DNA of 64,000 bases from a virus (IMGVR_UViG_3300020451_002055); one strand, 5' to 3'. Shown: positions 1,015-63,832, counted from the stretch's first letter. Program-made: numbers and translations. The notes: a model not told the origin generated them from the sequence alone.

Positions 1015-1543
1015 TCCGTCAACTCTCCGCCTAGTCATCTACCCGCATCCGGCTCTCGTAGAGATGTGTCAGCCGGTTGATGACCCGACAAGCCAATACA
1101 TTCAAGACTGCATCGCACGCATGAAGACCGTCCTGAAGTCTATGCCTAATGGTATTGGGCTAGCGGCATCTCAGGTCGGTCTTTTACTGCGCATCTACGT
1201 TGCCTATGACAAACTAGAGCCAGGAAATCCCGGCGACCTGGTCGCATACATCAATCCGGAGTTCGAGCCGCAATCGGTTTTGACTCCCGCGATCGAGAAT
1301 GAAGGATGCCTCAGCTTTCCGGGCATTACTGGCGATGTCATGCGCCCTCCGAGCGGTAAGCTCAGCTATATCAACGAGCAAGGCGAACAGGTGCAGGAAG
1401 ATGTCGAAGGCTTGAAGGCACGATGCGCTCAGCATGAGATCGACCATCTCAACGGGATTTCGCTTGTTCAGAGCATGACCGACGAGTCAAAGAAGAAGGC
1501 TCGCGCAGCAATTGATCGCCTTGGCAAAAGACGCCGCCGTTAG
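998..1543 (+). CDS. def: peptide deformylase
   Basis: Motifs GIGLAASQVG, EGCLS, QHEIDHLNG. Confidence 0.95.
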   Translation: MSQQPDPSTLRLVIYPHPALVEMCQPVDDPTSQYIQDCIARMKTVLKSMPNGIGLAASQVGLLLRIYVAYDKLEPGNPGDLVAYINPEFEPQSVLTPAIENEGCLSFPGITGDVMRPPSGKLSYINEQGEQVQEDVEGLKARCAQHEIDHLNGISLVQSMTDESKKKARAAIDRLGKRRRR

Positions 1544-10737: not shown

Positions 10738-11280
10738 ATGTGCGGACGTTACACCCCCAAAGACGCAATCAATGCCATCTTCCATCACTTCGTTACCCTC
10801 GGCGGGTTGCCCGCTGTCGGCAGCGATGGAACCAAGTTCTACTTCGAGAAGGGAGCAGGTTGCGCTGTGACAGTTCTCGCAACTCCTGAGATGAGGAAGA
10901 TGCTCGCTCAGACCAATCATCATCTTTCTCCCGCGAGCAGCATGGATGAGCGGATCCCGCTTTGGGATCTCATCTCTGCTGCTGGTTGGGATCGGTTCAG
11001 GATCATGCAGTTCGTTCAGTCTCTTCAGGACGCTCATGATGCGGCTGCTGACGAATACGTTGCCTCCATTCGCAACGGCGACAACCAGGGCAGAGCCCAT
11101 GACATCTTCTGCGGGCGTCTGACCCGAGAACTCTCAAACATCAGCAGGTCGTTCGACATGCATGATCTTGCCCGCGACCTCAAGCTGCGGGACCGCCCGC
11201 AGCGTTACAGCCAACCCGATGAAGCCATCGAATCGGCTGCCCCTCAGTTCACCGAGACCGGAGACCTGATTACGGCCTGA
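10738..11280 (+). CDS. hypothetical protein
   Basis: AAGGAG RBS; last gene before terminator. Confidence 0.7.
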   Translation: MCGRYTPKDAINAIFHHFVTLGGLPAVGSDGTKFYFEKGAGCAVTVLATPEMRKMLAQTNHHLSPASSMDERIPLWDLISAAGWDRFRIMQFVQSLQDAHDAAADEYVASIRNGDNQGRAHDIFCGRLTRELSNISRSFDMHDLARDLKLRDRPQRYSQPDEAIESAAPQFTETGDLITA

Positions 11281-17471: not shown

Positions 17472-17562
17472 GCCCCTGTAGCTCAATTGGAAGAGCGGCG
17501 GGTTTCTATTCCGTTTAGACTATCGAAAGTCAAGGTTGGGGGTTCGAGTCCCTCCAGGGGTG
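17472..17562 (+). tRNA. trnR: tRNA-Arg(TCT) with long variable arm
   Basis: GCGGG-TT TCT AT-TCCGT; 23-nt V region with GACT/AGTC stem. Confidence 0.85.
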
Positions 17563-17569
17563 CTTAACG

Positions 17570-22145: not shown

Positions 22146-22472
22146 ATGACCGTCAGCTTCACTCAGTACGTTCGGGATCGCAAGAACAGGCGTCGAGGCG
22201 TCTTCCTCGTTGATCTCGATGGGGATCAGGTATCTCTCGGTTGGAGTCTTTGCTCCATTACCCGAGGCGACCACTTTGATCGAGACTTCGGCCTTCAGAT
22301 CGCCGAGGATCGGCGAGACAAGAGAGAGGCTCTTAGCTTCTCTCTGAACAACAGAACTGATCTTCTTGATGCTCGCCAAGAGGTTCCTCACAGCATGCGA
22401 CCGACCTTCGATCGGATCATCGATCGATGCGGCAGAATCGTTCGTAATCAAGAAGCAGAAGCCGTCGCTTGA
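22146..22472 (+). CDS. hypothetical protein
   Basis: AAGGAGG RBS. Confidence 0.75.
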   Translation: MTVSFTQYVRDRKNRRRGVFLVDLDGDQVSLGWSLCSITRGDHFDRDFGLQIAEDRRDKREALSFSLNNRTDLLDARQEVPHSMRPTFDRIIDRCGRIVRNQEAEAVA

Positions 22473-22479
22473 CGGTAGC

Positions 22480-22561
22480 GCGTCGTTGGCAGAGCGGCAA
22501 TTGCGACAGACTGTAAATCTGTTCCCATTCGGGTTCGGGGGTTCGAGTCCCTCACGGCGCA
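22480..22561 (+). tRNA. trnY: tRNA-Tyr(GTA), second copy
   Basis: ACAGA-CT GTA AA-TCTGT; V arm. Confidence 0.95.
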
Positions 22562-22565
22562 CTTA

Positions 22566-22735
22566 GACGATGAAGCAACGCGATGTTGAACATTAGGCTC
22601 AGCGGCTCGACCAGCATATAGGGTTTGGAAGTAGGGTATCTTTGGCAAAGATGTAAGGTCGTGCAACTCCCTACGCCGAAGTAGAGCAGATGTAGAAAGC
22701 CAAGGATCTTGCCGGTTGAAACCCGGCCATCGTCT
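22566..22735 (+). ncRNA. giant tRNA-like RNA A (170 nt)
   Basis: Acceptor GACGATG/CATCGTC+T, stacked T-like arm GCCGG-TTGAAAC-CCGGC, 138-nt structured interior. Confidence 0.65.
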
Positions 22736-22739
22736 TTAC

Positions 22740-22822
22740 GGGGCAGTAGCTCAAGCGTAAGCAAAAGGTAGAGCAGCGGATTGAAGTCCCGCGTGTTGCC
22801 AGTTCGAATCTGGTCTGTCCCA
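22740..22822 (+). tRNA. trnF: tRNA-Phe(GAA) with enlarged D loop
   Basis: GCGGA-TT GAA GT-CCCGC; 18-nt D loop containing GC-GTAA-GC. Confidence 0.75.
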
Positions 22823-23734: not shown

Positions 23735-23815
23735 GGTGGCTATGGCAGACAGGTAATGCACCTGGTTGTGAACCAGGGCCGTAAGGCAATGCGAGTTCGA
23801 ATCTCGTTAGTCACC
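23735..23815 (+). tRNA. trnH: tRNA-His(GTG) with long variable arm
   Basis: G-1/C73; CCTGG-TT GTG AA-CCAGG; V region GCC-GTAA-GGC-AAT. Confidence 0.85.
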
Positions 23816-23820
23816 CTTTT

Positions 23821-24393: not shown

Positions 24394-24399
24394 CTTTAT

Positions 24400-24542
24400 G
24401 GATGCGGAATCCTTTGTAAGGCGCTGTCTTGAGCAGGTGCCGCGATAAGGCGAGAATCCCCGGGCGGGCGAAACTCATTCAAAGGGCGGACTGGAACTTT
24501 GGAGCAGTCAAGGTTTCTTGGGTTCGAATCCCAACGCATCCG
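24400..24542 (+). ncRNA. giant tRNA-like RNA B (143 nt)
   Basis: Acceptor GGATGCG/CGCATCC+G, perfect T arm TTGGG-TTCGAAT-CCCAA, expanded interior. Confidence 0.7.
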
Positions 24543-24561
24543 TTTCTCAAGAACAGGACTC

Positions 24562-24907: not shown

Positions 24908-25065
24908 GATTGCAGTTGATATCGTAACCCCAAAGCCATATGGGGACGTTGACGAAGGGGAGATTACTCCAAGGTCGGACTCAAGTCGGCTTAGTCATGC
25001 TTGAACTAAACGGCTCCGGCTAAAGTGACAGACGATGCGGGACCGGAAACCCGTGAACTGCAATC
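24908..25065 (+). ncRNA. structured RNA C (158 nt), possibly tRNA-like
   Basis: Perfect 10-bp terminal stem GATTGCAGTT/AACTGCAATC, 3' hairpin GCGGG/CCCGT, several internal hairpins. Confidence 0.6.
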
Positions 25066-26015: not shown

Positions 26016-26175
26016 GGTAGGTAATGCTCTGAAGAAAGTCTTGGCTGTACATCCAAGATGAGCTTTCTCAAGAAATCAGGAAAGCAAGTATTCAGATTCA
26101 GCACATGCGACTACTGGGACGCGCGAAAATATTCCCGATAAGACCAAGGTATGTAGGTACTCCTTGGGCCTACCA
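26016..26175 (+). ncRNA. giant tRNA-like RNA D (160 nt)
   Basis: Acceptor-like GGTAGGT/GCCTACC+A with abutting CCAAGG/CCTTGG hairpin; long internal helices. Confidence 0.6.
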
Positions 26176-30850: not shown

Positions 30851-31282
30851 ATGGATCGGGTTGAGCTTTACACCGATGGGTCATGCGAGCCCTCCTCCGG
30901 CATCGGAGGATGGGCTTTTATCCTTCGGTTTCCTGAGATCGGGCACGAAGTCAAAGCTGCCGGTCGAGCAGAAGAGACAACGAACAATCGAATGGAGATG
31001 ACTGCGGTCATCGAAGGCCTCAAGCGTCTCAACAAACGCTGCGAGGTCGTTGTCTATGCAGACAGCAAGTATGTCCTTGACGGACTTAGAAGTTGGCTTC
31101 CTGCATGGAAGAAGAACGGATGGAAGAAGTCTGACAAGAAGCCCGTGAAGAACAAAGATCTATGGGTTGTCTTGGACGAACTGAAGAAGGCCCATAAGCT
31201 GCGTTACAACTGGGTCAAGGGTCATAACGACCACGAAGAGAATGAGCAAGTCGATCAGATGGCTTGCAACATACGGCGGTAG
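30851..31282 (+). CDS. rnhA: ribonuclease HI
   Basis: YTDGSC, TTNNRMEMTA, YADSKYV, WVKGH..NEQVDQMA. Confidence 0.95.
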   Translation: MDRVELYTDGSCEPSSGIGGWAFILRFPEIGHEVKAAGRAEETTNNRMEMTAVIEGLKRLNKRCEVVVYADSKYVLDGLRSWLPAWKKNGWKKSDKKPVKNKDLWVVLDELKKAHKLRYNWVKGHNDHEENEQVDQMACNIRR

Positions 31283-31359
31283 CTCAATTGGTAGAGCGTC
31301 TGACGACTGGAAAGTCTTTCCACATCAGAAGGTTGGCAGTTCGAATCCGTCCCGCCGTG
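31273..31359 (+). tRNA. tRNA with 14-nt hairpin insertion in the anticodon loop (identity unclear, Trp-like acceptor)
   Basis: ACGGCGG/CCGCCGT+G, canonical D arm, TCTGA/TCAGA stem enclosing 21 nt. Confidence 0.7.
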
Positions 31360-31361
31360 TT

Positions 31362-33380: not shown

Positions 33381-33608
33381 GTCGTTGTATCTTTCGACCC
33401 ATCGCTCTATCCGTCACTCAACGATACGGACGAGAGGAAAGTCGGGACTGCACTTCGCGAATGAGGGAGGCCTAAACAGCCGTTTGGACCGCAGAGGCAG
33501 CAACTCAAACAGACCGGAGAGTGGGCGAAGCTCGTTGATGGTCGGGTAGAGGCCAATAGAGAAATGATGGGATAGAACAGGATCCCGCTTACGGATTGAT
33601 ACGACAAC
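33381..33608 (+). ncRNA. rnpB: RNase P RNA, minimal form (about 228 nt)
   Basis: CR-I GAGGAAAGTCGGG, CR-V AACAGGATCCCGCTTA, CR-IV TAGAGAAATG, P1 GTTGTATC/GATACGAC, P2 CCCATC/GATGGG, P5 CTGC/GCAG-CAA, L15 GGGTA. Confidence 0.9.
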
Positions 33609-38567: not shown

Positions 38568-38656
38568 GGAGAGTAATCCCAGACGGCGACGGGCACCGCT
38601 TGGAAAGCGGTTGGATCAGGTAACCCCTGGTTGCGGTTCGACCCCGCTGCTCTCCG
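38568..38656 (+). tRNA. trnS: tRNA-Ser(GGA), second copy
   Basis: ACCGC-TT GGA AA-GCGGT; V arm; G73. Confidence 0.9.
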
Positions 38657-38662
38657 TTCCTT

Positions 38663-39400
38663 ATGAACGATCCCAAGATAGCAATTTGCCTTTCTGGTCT
38701 TCTTAGATCGTTCAGAACCACATATCCAAGTTTCAAAAAGAATCTCATAGGCGATCTGCCTTGCGATATCTATATGCATCTCTGGTTAGATGGAGATAGC
38801 AAAGAAGATATCGATGAAGCTATCAACCTGTATTCGCCTTACAAAGTCAAGATAGAGGCAAACAGGACGCATGACTTTGAAGAAGAGTATCAAAGCCTTG
38901 TTGACAAGTATGACCTGGATACTGATTCTACGATAACATGGCCTCCTAGCTTGCTGATTGTTCATTATGGGACTTCAGCTTGTTTTTCTCAGGTCAGTTT
39001 TAGAAAGTATGATCTCATTGTACGAGCGAGATATGATACCGAGTTTGTATCAAGAGTGCCCCTAGAGGGGTATTCAAGGATATCTCACGAGTTTGCTATT
39101 TTCCCTCCTGCTGAGAACTGCGATAAGCCTTTTGACAAGGAGATGAGAGAACTAGCGAAGGTCAGTCGTTTTTACTTGCTCAATGATCAGTTTGCAGTTG
39201 GTACTCCTCTGATGATGCAAAGGTATTTCAGCCTCTATGAGAGCATAGATGACTATCTATCCAAAATGCACCTAGACGTAGGTATCTTCTATCATCCAGA
39301 AGGTCTTCTCAAGTTTCACATGAATGAGGCTCAAGGGTCTTTTGGGGAGATCATTATAGACGAGCGAATCAAAATGAGACTTCTGCGTGAACATCTATAG
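38663..39400 (+). CDS. putative glycosyltransferase-like protein, paralog 3
   Basis: IAICLSGLLRS; YDLIVRARYD; NDQFAVG; HPEGLL. Confidence 0.65.
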   Translation: MNDPKIAICLSGLLRSFRTTYPSFKKNLIGDLPCDIYMHLWLDGDSKEDIDEAINLYSPYKVKIEANRTHDFEEEYQSLVDKYDLDTDSTITWPPSLLIVHYGTSACFSQVSFRKYDLIVRARYDTEFVSRVPLEGYSRISHEFAIFPPAENCDKPFDKEMRELAKVSRFYLLNDQFAVGTPLMMQRYFSLYESIDDYLSKMHLDVGIFYHPEGLLKFHMNEAQGSFGEIIIDERIKMRLLREHL

Positions 39401-39459
39401 CGATGCTTTGTCGCCTATCGAAAGACAGTGAGCGACATGCATTTGAGAAAGGTAAGCCA

Positions 39460-39684
39460 ATGGAAGTAGCTTTGACTCTCCTAATACAAACCAATATCAC
39501 AGCGGAAGACGAAGAAGCCTACGAGGATCGGCGCGACGAACTCATCCGAACGCTCGAAGAAAAGGGCTTTGCGGTCAACATTGAAAATGAGTCAAGCGAT
39601 GACTTCGAGGATGAAGAGTATTACATCGATCGATTTGACGACGATGATGAAGACGACGATGAAGATGACGACGATGAATGGTGA
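39460..39684 (+). CDS. small protein with Asp/Glu-rich tail
   Basis: AAGGT RBS; poly-D/E C-terminus. Confidence 0.55.
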   Translation: MEVALTLLIQTNITAEDEEAYEDRRDELIRTLEEKGFAVNIENESSDDFEDEEYYIDRFDDDDEDDDEDDDDEW

Positions 39685-39698
39685 TCTTTATCTCTTAT

Positions 39699-39865
39699 GC
39701 TCGGGATAGCTCATAGAGGAAGAGCGGTATGTCTCGCCTGCGGAAAGCAGGCTCACTGCGTCAGGCTGTTAGGTCGGCGGCACTGTTGAAACAGTCGATC
39801 GGGTCCGGAACCGACTTCGGTTTCTCTTTGCTTAGCTTGAGTGGGTTCGAATCCCGCCCCGGGCT
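39699..39865 (+). ncRNA. giant tRNA-like RNA E (167 nt)
   Basis: Acceptor GCTCGGG/CCCGGGC+T, D arm GCTC/GAGC, T arm GTGGG-TTCGAAT-CCCGC; about 115-nt multi-hairpin insert replaces anticodon/variable arms. Confidence 0.8.
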
Positions 39866-39866
39866 T

Positions 39867-42800
39867 TTACGGATTGATCTTGAACCGAAACTCAAGCAGC
39901 TTGCCTGAGATGATCGAGTTCTTATCAAACACTTTGGCTTTGAGAGTAATAATCTCTCCGCCAGAGAAAGAGGCATCAAGCTCAATAGGTCCGCGATAAA
40001 GGGATGACTTCTTAGTTGGAGCATCCCCATTTATCGTGTACCTGATTTCGCTGAAACTCTGAGTCCTATCCAGAAGAAAGCTGAGAGCTATCACCGCTCT
40101 TCTCTCAAAGGAAGGGACAAAAGAGTTTCTCTGTACATTGCCTTGATTCTGAACAGAAAAGCTCTGGTTGTTGATGGTGAAGAATAGGGGCGAGTTACGG
40201 ATCCTTCCTGCCCTTGAACTAATAGGTCTATTTGGAGTGACTGTTGCCTCAATCTCTCTAAATGATACCTCATTCGGCTCGGTATACGGAAGCTCGATTG
40301 TGTAAGACGTTGTAGCCGACTGTCCTACAGCAGGAAGAGTAATCGGAACTTTAGCGAATGTCAATCGCTCATGATCTGTATAGAACTCTCTGAACGGATT
40401 GGCTTGCAGAGTTCCTCGTATGAATATCCCATCGCCAAACCCGTTTATGGTTGATCTTGGATTTTCAATACTGCGAACCATAGCAGTTCTTGAAGAGGAG
40501 CCAATCATATTTGATCCAGATACCATCGGTACAGACTCGTAGAGTTCAATGATAGAGTCTCCCGAGTTTCTTGTGACTTGATTCTGAATACGGATACTTT
40601 TCAGTCCGAATGTCATTGTCTTGACAATCGATACATCTCCATCTTCAAAGTTGTCATCGCCGTACATCGTATATGAAATGACGACCTTGTTGCCATCAAT
40701 CTGATAGGTTCTACCTGATGGACGAGCCCATCTCCTCTCGTCTCCGCTTGTAATACCTACGATCTGATGAGTCAAGAAAGGAGCTACGTTGCGGCCCGTA
40801 ATGAAAGGCCTTCCTGCATCCCTGCTATACAACAGAGATATACCGCTTCCGCCGATCTCAGCGGCATCTACTCCTCTCCGGGGCTTGTCTGGACTGGTCT
40901 CAATCATCGGATACGGTTCATCGAGCCAATCGCCGCCGGTCGTTTCGAAGGGCTCTCTTGCTCGCTCGTGCTGTTCTTGGGCCTTTCTCCAATAAAACTC
41001 GCCCGGAAAGAATGTTGGCAAAGATGCATAGTAGGCAGGAGTGTCAATACGAATATAGTCCTCTCCCTCTCTGACCTTGACTACATTATGAGAGGTCTCT
41101 TCTGCGGGAAGGACGTAAGAGTTCGGGTTTGATATGTTCTCGTCCGCTTCAAGCCACATGTCGTAGATTTGAAACTTCCAGCCGCCATGTATTTCGAACA
41201 ACGTAGGGTTATCCGTGTCGTTGCTAATCTCTGTATTCATTAGTTCAGCATATTCAGCAAGAGCGCTGGCTGCTTCGCCTGCCGATTTGAATCTGCCTCT
41301 TAGCAAATTCCACTTGGCAACGATAGGAGAAATGTTGCCTAGCTTGCTAACCGCTCCTCCATACTGTTCTTGTAGCGAGCCAAGGTTCGTTCTTGAGTCG
41401 CTGTCATAGGCGTATATCCCCTTGTTGATATCCTTTGTTGGAGCTACAAAGTATTGCCACCACTTGTAGTTCTTCTCGATGGAATCAACAAGGAAATCCC
41501 AATCAGGATCGCCGTCTGCCATCATCCATGCAGATGCCATCTCGAAGTTCTGAATGCCGCAATATGAGCCGTCATAGCTGACAGCTTCAGGAAGAGGAGT
41601 GTTCTCGTTTGTTGAGCCGATATCATCTCTTCTCATGATTTGCTTGGCTTCATCTACGCAGACTTGCTTGAGATTGTTGTTGCCGTACTTCAACTGCCAT
41701 ATCAAAGGAGCTACAACAAAGATAGGAAGGATGCCGCAATCCTGATTTCGGGTAGAAGTAAAGATATCCGCTATGGTAGCATCAAGCTGATCTAGGATAT
41801 TGTATGCAAGAGCATCCGTATCTCCTGCCTCAATGTTGTCTATCTGATTGTTGAAGAAGACGCCTGCTGCCAGTTCTCCCGATCCTGCAAGACCAGAGTT
41901 TCCAAGCCTTGATGTAATACTGAAAGCTGATCCTCTGAGCCTATAGCCATGAACGCACCTAGCATCAGCAATAGTGCTGATTCGGGCTCTCTTTTTGAGG
42001 TCGCTGTCGTTATAGTACGGATTGGAAGAATCATTCCATGCCGAGAGAAAAGCAAAGAAGCCGCCTCTGTTGATATGCTGAGCGCCGTAAGGCAGCATGC
42101 CGGTGCCCGTTGAACCTATCTCGTCATGGACATGGCCGCAGCGATGGGCAGAGGTGGTAAAGTTCTGCTGATTCAATGCAGTATGAACAGTTCTAAAACA
42201 GTTGGCATACTTGTCGATATGGTAGTATCTGCGAGGATTCGCTGCCCATTCAGTCGCAGCATCAGGCCAAGTCTTCTTTGAATCCTCATAGTCCGTACTA
42301 CTCATAGTCGCGATAATCTCAACGATTCGACTATGACCAAGCTCGTCTCCCTTACCCCAAAATCGTATCGAGCCCGGTTTCGTCGTGCCTGATTGAATAG
42401 CGTTCGCTGCAGCAAGACTGTTGCAAACAACGAAAGGTAGTCGCTCGAAGCGAAGAGTCCAGCTTCCTGAAGTTGTCAGCGTCCATACGTCATCGGATCC
42501 GAATGTGGGATTGTCGGCTCTTTCGACAGTTCCGTCTGTTGGATGCTCGGTGTCATCAATGGGCGTATCATCAGATTGAGCTATTGTGACATCGCCGGTA
42601 AATAGAAAGCCATAGTCCGGAGCCTCGGCAGGCACGAAGATATAGCCTGGAGAAAAATCTATGCAGTCCTCGTTGAGTATACCTCCTGCATACTGAATAC
42701 CATACTGATCTATGGAGAAGTCCGCAAGGATATCCCAAGTTGACCCATCAGTCCCCTTGATGACAACTCGATAAATACCTGTCTTAGTAGGCAAGTCTAT

Positions 42801-63758: not shown

Positions 63759-63832
63759 GTCCCGGTAGCTCAATTGGTAGAGCCGAGGATTCTAAATCCT
63801 TGAGAGTACGGGTTCGAGTCCCGTCCGGGGCA
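63759..63832 (+). tRNA. amber suppressor tRNA(CTA), second
   Basis: GAGGA-TT CTA AA-TCCTT; acceptor GTCCCGG/CCGGGGC, A73. Confidence 0.9.

Follow-up and report, generated by a model that had tools for sequence, protein, structure and literature searches.

Phages T4 and T5 both encode small stable RNAs within their tRNA clusters. At the end of the T4 cluster lie rnaC (species 1, 139 nt) and rnaD (species 2, 119 nt), whose roles are given as unknown in a review of T4 (PMC3014915) and for which Rfam holds no family, while the T5 record AY543070 annotates RNA1 (144 nt) and RNA2 (125 nt), each as a “tRNA-like stable RNA with unknown functions”. Mimicry of part of a tRNA has also been reported from bacteria, where the Y RNA-like YrlA (RF02553) is described as a non-coding RNA that imitates the D/T elbow (PMC4201824).

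Here we analyse a 167-nt tRNA-shaped RNA, which we refer to as RNA E, encoded in a 64-kb stretch of phage DNA (the window, by which we mean the whole of that stretch). An earlier note on this DNA had presented RNA E as the clearest of five such RNAs (A to E), which were considered to form a family within a previously undescribed class, and our analysis supports that interpretation in part. The claim of an undescribed class cannot be maintained, given that T4 rnaC and T5 RNA1 and RNA2 fold with the same frame within phage tRNA clusters; our literature search returned no paper on RNA E or on giant tRNA-framed RNAs of huge phages.

Structure of RNA E

The acceptor, D arm and T arm of RNA E had been described as near-canonical, and a re-reading of the sequence bears this out (Table 1). 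The D stem is unchanged in all four phages in which we find the RNA, the D loop retains A14 and G18G19, and both the D loop AUAGAGGAA and the T loop UUCGAAU are kept in every homolog, together with the nucleotides that form the elbow (G18G19; U54, U55, C56 and A58). The linker before the D stem is 3 nt long in RNA E, as against the canonical 2-nt UA in two of the homologs (L001 and L019, introduced below). Between the D and T arms lies an interior of about 115 nt, in which a 3-bp stem, the only pairing at the anticodon-stem position, opens into a junction of about 105 nt that replaces the anticodon arm; an anticodon arm of 5 bp and 7 nt (with U33 and a purine at 37) was not found in RNA E.

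Table 1 Positions of RNA E, its parts and the other features discussed (window coordinates unless another contig is named)
Feature	Position	Strand	Remarks
Upstream acidic ORF, 93 aa	39403-39684	+	ends 14 nt before RNA E
RNA E, 167 nt	39699-39865	+	tRNA-shaped
Acceptor, 5' strand, GCUCGGG	39699-39705	+	pairs with 39858-39864; 7 bp, one U-G
Linker AUA, D arm GCUC / AUAGAGGAA / GAGC, and G26	39706-39726	+	
3-bp stem, GUA with UGC	39727-39729 with 39829-39831	+	at anticodon-stem position
Hairpin Pa, GCCUGC-GGAAA-GCAGGC	39736-39752	+	structure kept, sequence variable
Hairpin Pb, GCGUC-A-GGCU-GUUA-GGUC-GGC-G-GC	39758-39781	+	bulged A and G, GUUA loop
Variable joiner	39782-39794	+	local hairpin ACUGU-UGAA-ACAGU in window lineage only
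Hairpin Pc, UCGA-UCGG-GUCCGGAA-CCGA-CU-UCGG	39795-39820	+	8-nt loop with palindrome UCCGGA
Single strand UUAGCUUGA, 9 nt	39832-39840	+	at variable-region position
T arm, GUGGG-UUCGAAU-CCCGC	39841-39857	+	canonical T loop; abuts 3' acceptor strand
Acceptor, 3' strand, CCCGGGC, with discriminator U73 (39865) and UUU trailer	39858-39868	+	CCA not encoded
Giant RNA A, 170 nt	22566-22735	+	7-bp terminal helix and GCCGG-UUGAAAC-CCGGC hairpin; U73, UU trailer
Giant RNA B, 143 nt	24400-24542	+	7-bp acceptor, canonical T arm, no D arm
Structured RNA C, 158 nt	24908-25065	+	10-bp terminal helix and GCGGG-ACCGGAAA-CCCGU hairpin
Giant RNA D, 160 nt	26016-26175	+	terminal helix and CCAAGG/CCUUGG hairpin; between tRNA-Ile and tRNA-Met
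RNase P class A-like RNA	33386-33607		56.5 bits (gathering threshold 100)
RNase P class A-like RNA, L001	13972-14191	-	52.7 bits (gathering threshold 100)
tmRNA	49896-50249		
CUA suppressor tRNAs	51482-51556; 63759-63832		
tRNA-framed RNA, L019, 174 nt	10904-11077	-	beside fibre-like gene
Structured RNA, L018 (sludge relative), 137 nt	1116-1252		in RNA C slot, after tRNA-Asn; unrelated to RNA C

We scanned the window, and shuffled versions of it, with a strict pattern consisting of a T loop UUCRANN on a 5-bp stem and an abutting 7-bp terminal helix, 100-220 nt apart. Shuffled windows yielded 0.06 matches each, and none in 300 shuffles once a D arm with GG was also required. Within the real window the pattern recovers RNA E (with its D arm), RNA B, and two artefacts that bridge neighbouring tRNAs, and RNA E is the only one to pass the full test including the D arm with GG.

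The earlier note had allowed that these RNAs might prove to be members of known Rfam families. No family was matched by RNA E, either in the whole window at gathering thresholds, over 15000-41000 at E<=1 or for RNA E alone at E<=10, nor was one found for it at the homologous loci at E<=0.1. The tRNA model RF00005 likewise gave no match to RNA E at E<=1 (gathering threshold 29 bits), and ARAGORN in standard mode missed it. Gene callers place an ORF of 58-59 aa over RNA E in two public assemblies (L002 and L011); this ORF is almost certainly spurious, and we reject a coding reading of RNA E because the 59-aa ORF of the window (39729-39908, plus strand) is closed in all three frames in L001.

Homologs, conservation and covariation

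Homologs of RNA E occupy the same syntenic site in three further huge-phage contigs, the DNA of which was retrieved by way of the neighbouring proteins: a sludge relative (L011), in which the acidic ORF has 84% amino acid identity, a JGI contig (L001), in which both neighbouring proteins have 52-53% (the acidic ORF 52%), and a 467-kb scaffold from another metagenome (L019), in which the fibre-like protein has 46%. In four out of four loci a tRNA-framed RNA of 165-175 nt occupies the interval from the stop of an upstream ORF to that of a convergent Fn3_assoc/CHB_HEX_C gene, which in the window is a 1063-aa gene (Fn3_assoc) that stops at 39867 and abuts RNA E. The upstream ORF encodes the same small acidic protein in the three close loci (the window, L011 and L001), and the order of acidic ORF, RNA E and end of the convergent Fn3_assoc gene found in the window is repeated in both L011 and L001. 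The RNA of L019 has the frame and the GUUA hairpin in common with RNA E, the remainder of its insert being different. The 1063-aa protein is also present on contigs from Tara Oceans, which reach 486,961 nt in length. The public runs that contain the stretch are marine and include no RNA run, and a relative about 88% identical is present in one sludge run. Just beyond the fibre-like gene (at about 43562-46300 in the window, and in L002, L011 and L019) lie genes for Thg1 (tRNA-His guanylyltransferase) and for a short RF-1-like protein.

Further homologs of RNA E were not recovered by sequence-pattern scans of IMG/VR (using Pc with the linker, the Pb block, the linker with the T arm, and the Pc block) or of JGI metagenomes and GTDB genomes. 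Candidates from such scans (L006-L010 and L016) were rejected as chance matches in coding DNA that lack tRNA features. IMG/VR gave no relative of the 1063-aa protein, a search for shorter fragments was likewise negative, no RNA resembling E was present beside the gene for P0005 (L012-L014), P0014 (L020-L022), P0015 (L023) or P0016 (bacterial genomes), and blastn of 38600-41000 against 50,697 phage records returned no match.

RNA E is more conserved than its coding flanks: it is 92% identical to its homolog in L011 and 76% to that in L001, while the flanking coding DNA reaches 79-88% and 63-66%, respectively. This bears on a non-conserved tRNA pseudogene, an outcome that the earlier note had set against its own reading, and the comparison speaks against such a pseudogene. 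Covariation was counted by hand, because there are only four homologs and the insert of L019 shares little beyond the GUUA hairpin; the sequences of the window, L011 and L001 were cut into structural segments. MAFFT misaligns the acceptor and Pa columns of L001. The homolog in L011 has a mismatch A1xC72 in the acceptor and a C-A mismatch in Pc. Across 41 pairs in these three sequences we count 2 mismatches in 123 cells and at least six double compensatory changes, located at acceptor pair 6, one pair of the 3-bp stem, three pairs of Pa, one of the Pb upper stem and one of the Pc lower stem. L019 adds further double changes at acceptor pairs 3-5, T-stem pairs 2-3 and the Pb upper stem.

The frame itself carries part of this signal. 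In the acceptor of L001, pair 6 changes from G-C to U-A and pair 3 from U-G to C-G, and L019 differs compensatorily at pairs 3, 4 and 5. T-stem pair 2 is U-G, U-A or G-U among the three close homologs, and the T stem of L019 reads GGAGG/CCUUC. The 3-bp stem reads GUA/UGC in L011, as in the window, and GCU/AGC in L001, with two covarying pairs; it is unrecognisable in L019.

Within the insert, hairpin Pa keeps its structure through three double changes in L001 and a 3-nt deletion in L011, and its loop differs in all three close homologs. The upper stem of Pb covaries (GGCU/GGUC, GACU/GGUC and GAUC/GAUC, with AACC/GGUU in L019), while no change is seen among the three close homologs in its GUUA loop, bulged A, bulged G or lower stem; L019 keeps the GUUA loop and bulged A, and has A for the bulged G. 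The loop of Pc, GUCCGGAA, is likewise invariant in the close homologs, as are the Pc upper stem and CU bulge. In the Pc lower stem, L001 shows a single double compensatory change and L011 a single mismatch; the Pc motif is missing in L019. The single-stranded UUAGCUUGA is identical in the window, L011 and L001 despite the differing joiners beside it, and is not conserved in L019. The Pa loop and the joiners thus vary freely, while GUUA, GUCCGGAA, UUAGCUUGA and the bulges are identical in the three close homologs. Such a pattern is typical of RNAs in which helices serve as scaffolding and loops as contact surfaces, and may have the same meaning here.

These comparisons also discriminate among four interior helices that had been read from the window sequence. 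Covariation upholds one, GCCUGC/GCAGGC (Pa). The hairpin ACUGU/ACAGU is specific to one lineage: it has one mismatch in L011 and is absent in L001, and in L019 (weakly in L001) the joiner that contains it pairs instead with the 5' joiner. The remaining two, AGGCUG/UAGCUU and GUCGG/CCGAC, are present in the window sequence, yet homolog substitutions favour local hairpins, and we consider these long-range pairings disfavoured because the joint change in L001 of GGCU to GAUC and GGUC to GAUC keeps the local hairpin and would break both.

Genomic context and processing

The array that ends with RNA E is 24 kb long and contains 34 of the tRNA genes called by ARAGORN. Also encoded in the window are a tmRNA, an RNase P-like RNA of 222 nt and another two suppressor tRNAs. 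CCA is encoded by none of the tRNA genes (16090-63832), and TT follows 35 of the 36, against a background frequency for TT of 0.058. The same N73-TT trailer is common to RNAs A, B, C and E, and is missing from RNA D. This suggests a uniform tRNA 3'-end processing signal in the window.

The RNase P-like RNA (about 220 nt) spans the whole model, lies directly before tRNA-Gly and is conserved in L001, and for these reasons looks like a minimal RNase P RNA encoded by the phage. Given the shared trailer, the lack of an encoded CCA and this RNase P RNA, RNA E in turn looks like a substrate of tRNA 5' and 3' processing. No promoter-like site was found directly upstream of RNA E, and its position 14 nt downstream of the acidic ORF suggests that it is probably released from the transcript of that ORF. 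The metatranscriptome from the same sample as one of the runs that contain the stretch shares next to none of its sequence words, and its contigs match only generic tRNA parts and the GAC/GAT repeat of the acidic ORF, which argues neither for nor against expression. Seen against the tRNAs around it, RNA E seems to be the most extreme case in a genome whose tRNAs generally tolerate inserts.

The array holds other unusual tRNA genes. A gene resembling tRNA-Phe(GAA), at 22740-22822, was missed by both ARAGORN and Rfam; it has an 18-nt D loop, a 7-bp acceptor, a canonical T arm, an anticodon loop UUGAAGU, an A31xC39 mismatch and an A73-UU trailer. Otherwise normal tRNAs at 17472-17563, 23736-23816 and 31272-31360 are expanded, the expansions being a 23-nt variable arm in Arg(UCU), a 13-nt variable arm in His and one 21-nt anticodon loop. 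A GACU...AGUC hairpin that recurs in two odd tRNAs is not enriched over shuffles.

RNAs A to D

The motif behind RNAs A to D is looser than that of RNA E (any 7-bp terminal helix with an adjacent hairpin of 5 bp and 7 nt) and is common by chance, with about 15 occurrences per strand in shuffles. The hairpin loop of RNA A, UUGAAAC, is T-loop-like, and RNAs C and D have only a generic hairpin. RNAs A to D are still notable, because all four have a terminal helix that bridges a gap free of ORFs next to a tRNA gene and because A, B and C carry the N73-TT trailer. Single-sequence folding is uninformative for these RNAs: z-scores against shuffles are -1.4 for RNA E, -1.1 to -2.4 for A to D (-2.35 for C) and -0.03 for the RNA of L019, and the minimum-energy fold of RNA E, which is no better than those of shuffles, loses the T arm.

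As the earlier note had held, the interiors of A to E are unrelated in sequence, with nothing in common beyond the T loop. Blastn against the phage collection found no homolog of RNA A or RNA D, and only matches at the level of the T arm for RNA B. In the sludge relative, RNA B is precisely absent, with 8 nt in place of 24398-24552; the slot of RNA C is occupied by an unrelated RNA with an interrupted terminal helix of about 24 bp and a T-arm-like hairpin UCAGGG-UUCGAGU-CCUUGA (z = -5.2 against shuffles); and the slot of RNA D, between tRNA-Ile and tRNA-Met, holds a PDDEXK_5 ORF (PD-(D/E)XK) in L018. A contig of the sludge relative links 22333 to 22739, flanks between which RNA A lies in the window. 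With no shared sequence, and with B absent, C replaced and D's slot taken by an ORF in the nearest relative, the five RNAs do not form a homologous family, and share a design instead. This turnover in the sludge relative argues that positions in the array are conserved as slots for structured RNAs or mobile genes, the occupants of which change. RNA E is the only one of the five for which long-term selection can be demonstrated.

Possible explanations for RNA E

We consider it most likely, with moderate confidence, that RNA E is a stable RNA on a tRNA frame that is neither spliced nor used in decoding, and that the invariant surfaces of its insert bind a partner. RNA E would be transcribed on the tail of the upstream acidic-protein message, cut at G1 by RNase P and after U73 by the tRNA 3'-end pathway, and then receive CCA. 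It would fold into the usual acceptor/T stack and D/T-loop elbow, with the 3-bp stem leading into the junction of Pa, Pb (GUUA loop) and Pc (GUCCGGAA loop), followed by UUAGCUUGA. The tRNA frame may supply processing, stability and access to tRNA-binding factors, and the insert surfaces may bind a protein, another RNA, or a second copy of RNA E via the palindromic UCCGGA loop. The frame, its conservation, its covariation and the lack of a consistent anticodon are observed, and the processing route, the stability and any function in trans are inferred. A frame for processing and stability around a functional insert, as the earlier note had proposed, appears to be the best-supported explanation, given the compensatory changes in the frame and in two insert hairpins, the three invariant unpaired motifs, and the lack of any consistent anticodon or intron.

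A wider version of this explanation, which we regard as speculative and unlikely, is that RNA E and the other giant RNAs of the array are widespread effector RNAs of huge phages, for which the tRNA frame is an entry ticket to the host tRNA machinery and the insert acts in trans. The UCCGGA loop could then form kissing dimers, and through the resulting assembly a host factor specific for tRNA bodies could be titrated or misdirected; candidates would be a defence nuclease, a toxin that modifies CCA ends or a stress sensor. Were this true, the fast swapping of A to D between close relatives would be the signature of an arms race.

It is quite unlikely that RNA E is mainly a punctuation and 3'-end element acting in cis, which would give the upstream mRNA a tRNA-like processing signal and stable cap and separate two convergent genes as a barrier, with no role in trans for the excised RNA. 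Its position, 14 nt after the acidic ORF and, in each of the four phages, directly at the convergent gene's stop, would suit such a role, as would the location of A to D in gaps between tRNAs and ORFs, and a role of this kind is ascribed to the tRNA-like t-elements of plant mitochondria (PMC1920247). However, the acceptor/T half would be enough for processing, which leaves the invariant GUUA, GUCCGGAA and UUAGCUUGA and the covarying Pa, Pb and Pc unexplained, and ordinary tRNAs already perform this job elsewhere in the array.

A very unlikely alternative is that RNA E is a tRNA gene with an intron of 80-90 nt, removed by self-splicing or by an endonuclease and an RNA ligase to give a decoding tRNA. 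ARAGORN in intron mode does return a tRNA for every homolog, and it finds no Glu, Asp, Leu, Val or Pro tRNAs in the window. Yet the tRNAs it returns differ in both anticodon and insertion point, being Glu(UUC) in the window and L011 (introns of 88 and 85 nt, at 34/35), Gln(UUG) in L001 (82 nt, at 31/32) and Gly(CCC) in L019 (81 nt, at 37/38), and their stems contain U-U mismatches. A real tRNA would retain its anticodon loop, whereas the supposed anticodon-loop region is among the most variable parts of RNA E and the putative intron carries the invariant motifs; no consistent anticodon or intron can be extracted from the homologs. Inspection of the junctions showed no bulge-helix-bulge motif. 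The earlier report of no hammerhead, twister or HDV core holds, and extends to group I and II introns, pistol and hatchet: the intron and ribozyme families of Rfam 15 gave no match at E<=1 over 15000-41000, or at E<=10 on RNA E alone. To our knowledge, moreover, the insert of about 105 nt is shorter than the known group I cores. In practice, RNA E is given a false 59-aa ORF by gene callers, and tRNA finders overlook it unless they are run in intron mode, when they wrongly label it tRNA-Glu.

We consider it highly improbable that RNA E is charged through its acceptor identity (G1-C72, C2-G71 and U73), whether to act as a non-ribosomal aminoacyl donor or to decode via the Pc loop, in which G-U-CCG-G-AA would be an anticodon loop of 8 nt. 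In favour of this, RNA E has an intact acceptor end and elbow, U is the second nucleotide of the Pc loop and purines follow its CCG, and the genome line is rich in parts for translation (tmRNA, suppressor tRNAs, and Thg1, RF-1-like and HisRS-like genes). The tRNA-Sec model also aligns Pc weakly as an anticodon arm (15.8 bits, E = 0.96), but this Rfam match is not significant, the sludge homolog carries the A1xC72 mismatch and L019 is without the Pc motif. Furthermore, since Pc lies behind the 3-bp stem and a multi-helix junction, its distance from the acceptor end would not match that in a tRNA.

That RNA E is a decaying tRNA pseudogene with a junk insertion is barely credible: its 3-nt linker, the A1xC72 mismatch of one homolog and an unremarkable fold z-score would fit, but such decay is already contradicted by conservation exceeding that of the flanking genes, by compensatory changes across helices, by unpaired motifs that do not vary between phages with as little as 52% identity in the neighbouring proteins, and by the persistence of the frame in L019, whose neighbouring protein has 46% identity.

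Comparison with known systems

For a non-decoding, tRNA-framed RNA of this kind, the homologs already indicate which parts are under selection. If such RNAs are decoys, carriers or assemblies, a recurrent feature of huge-phage genomes would be explained, and they would represent a natural use of the tRNA-scaffold trick that biotechnologists employ for recombinant RNAs.

With canonical tRNA (RF00005), RNA E has in common the acceptor, D arm, T arm, discriminator, elbow nucleotides, gene placement and 3' trailer, and it differs in having a junction of about 105 nt where a tRNA has its anticodon arm. It resembles tmRNA (SsrA), which is also encoded by the phage in the window, in that the two halves of a tRNA-like end domain are separated by a large structured insert. 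However, tmRNA has no D stem, and it possesses pseudoknots, a reading frame for its tag and the alanine identity pair G3-U70, whereas in RNA E the D arm is complete, the pair is U3-G70 or C3-G70, and no frame is open in all homologs; both ARAGORN and Rfam call a tmRNA only at 49896-50249, and neither does so on RNA E. In YrlA the tRNA mimic is internal and the ends form the Ro-binding stem, in contrast to RNA E, the ends of which form an acceptor; RF02553 gave no match on RNA E and only weak matches over ordinary tRNAs elsewhere.

The closest resemblance is to the stable RNAs of T4 and T5. T5 RNA1 and RNA2 lie inside the phage tRNA region and, like RNA E, are predicted to have an acceptor helix (7-8 bp), a D-arm-like hairpin, an enlarged interior and a canonical T arm abutting the 3' strand (GCAGG-UUCGAAU-CCUGU in RNA2). 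They differ from RNA E in being shorter and in belonging to a lineage with a 122-kb genome, and their stability has been reported experimentally, whereas RNA E is known from sequence. T4 rnaC similarly places a canonical T arm (CCGGG-UUCGAAU-CCCGG) beside a terminal helix and has a large structured interior, but its terminal helix is imperfect (two U-U) and it has no D arm with GG, while the predicted fold of T4 rnaD is without tRNA features. Local blastn of the RNA E insert against the T4 and T5 loci found nothing beyond the T loop, and as RNA E has no sequence homology to the T4 or T5 RNAs, the kind that they represent is defined by design and not by descent.

RNA E is found at the edge of a phage tRNA array, falls within the size range of about 120-170 nt, and has a terminal helix abutting a canonical T arm and an enlarged interior, as in the T4 and T5 type. 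On these features we assign it to the known kind represented by T4 rnaC and T5 RNA1 and RNA2, in which it constitutes a new family with its own conserved insert and a complete D arm. RNA E thus provides a clean new case of this design, combining a complete tRNA body with a compact insert and few invariant surfaces, in a genome that appears to carry its own RNase P RNA.
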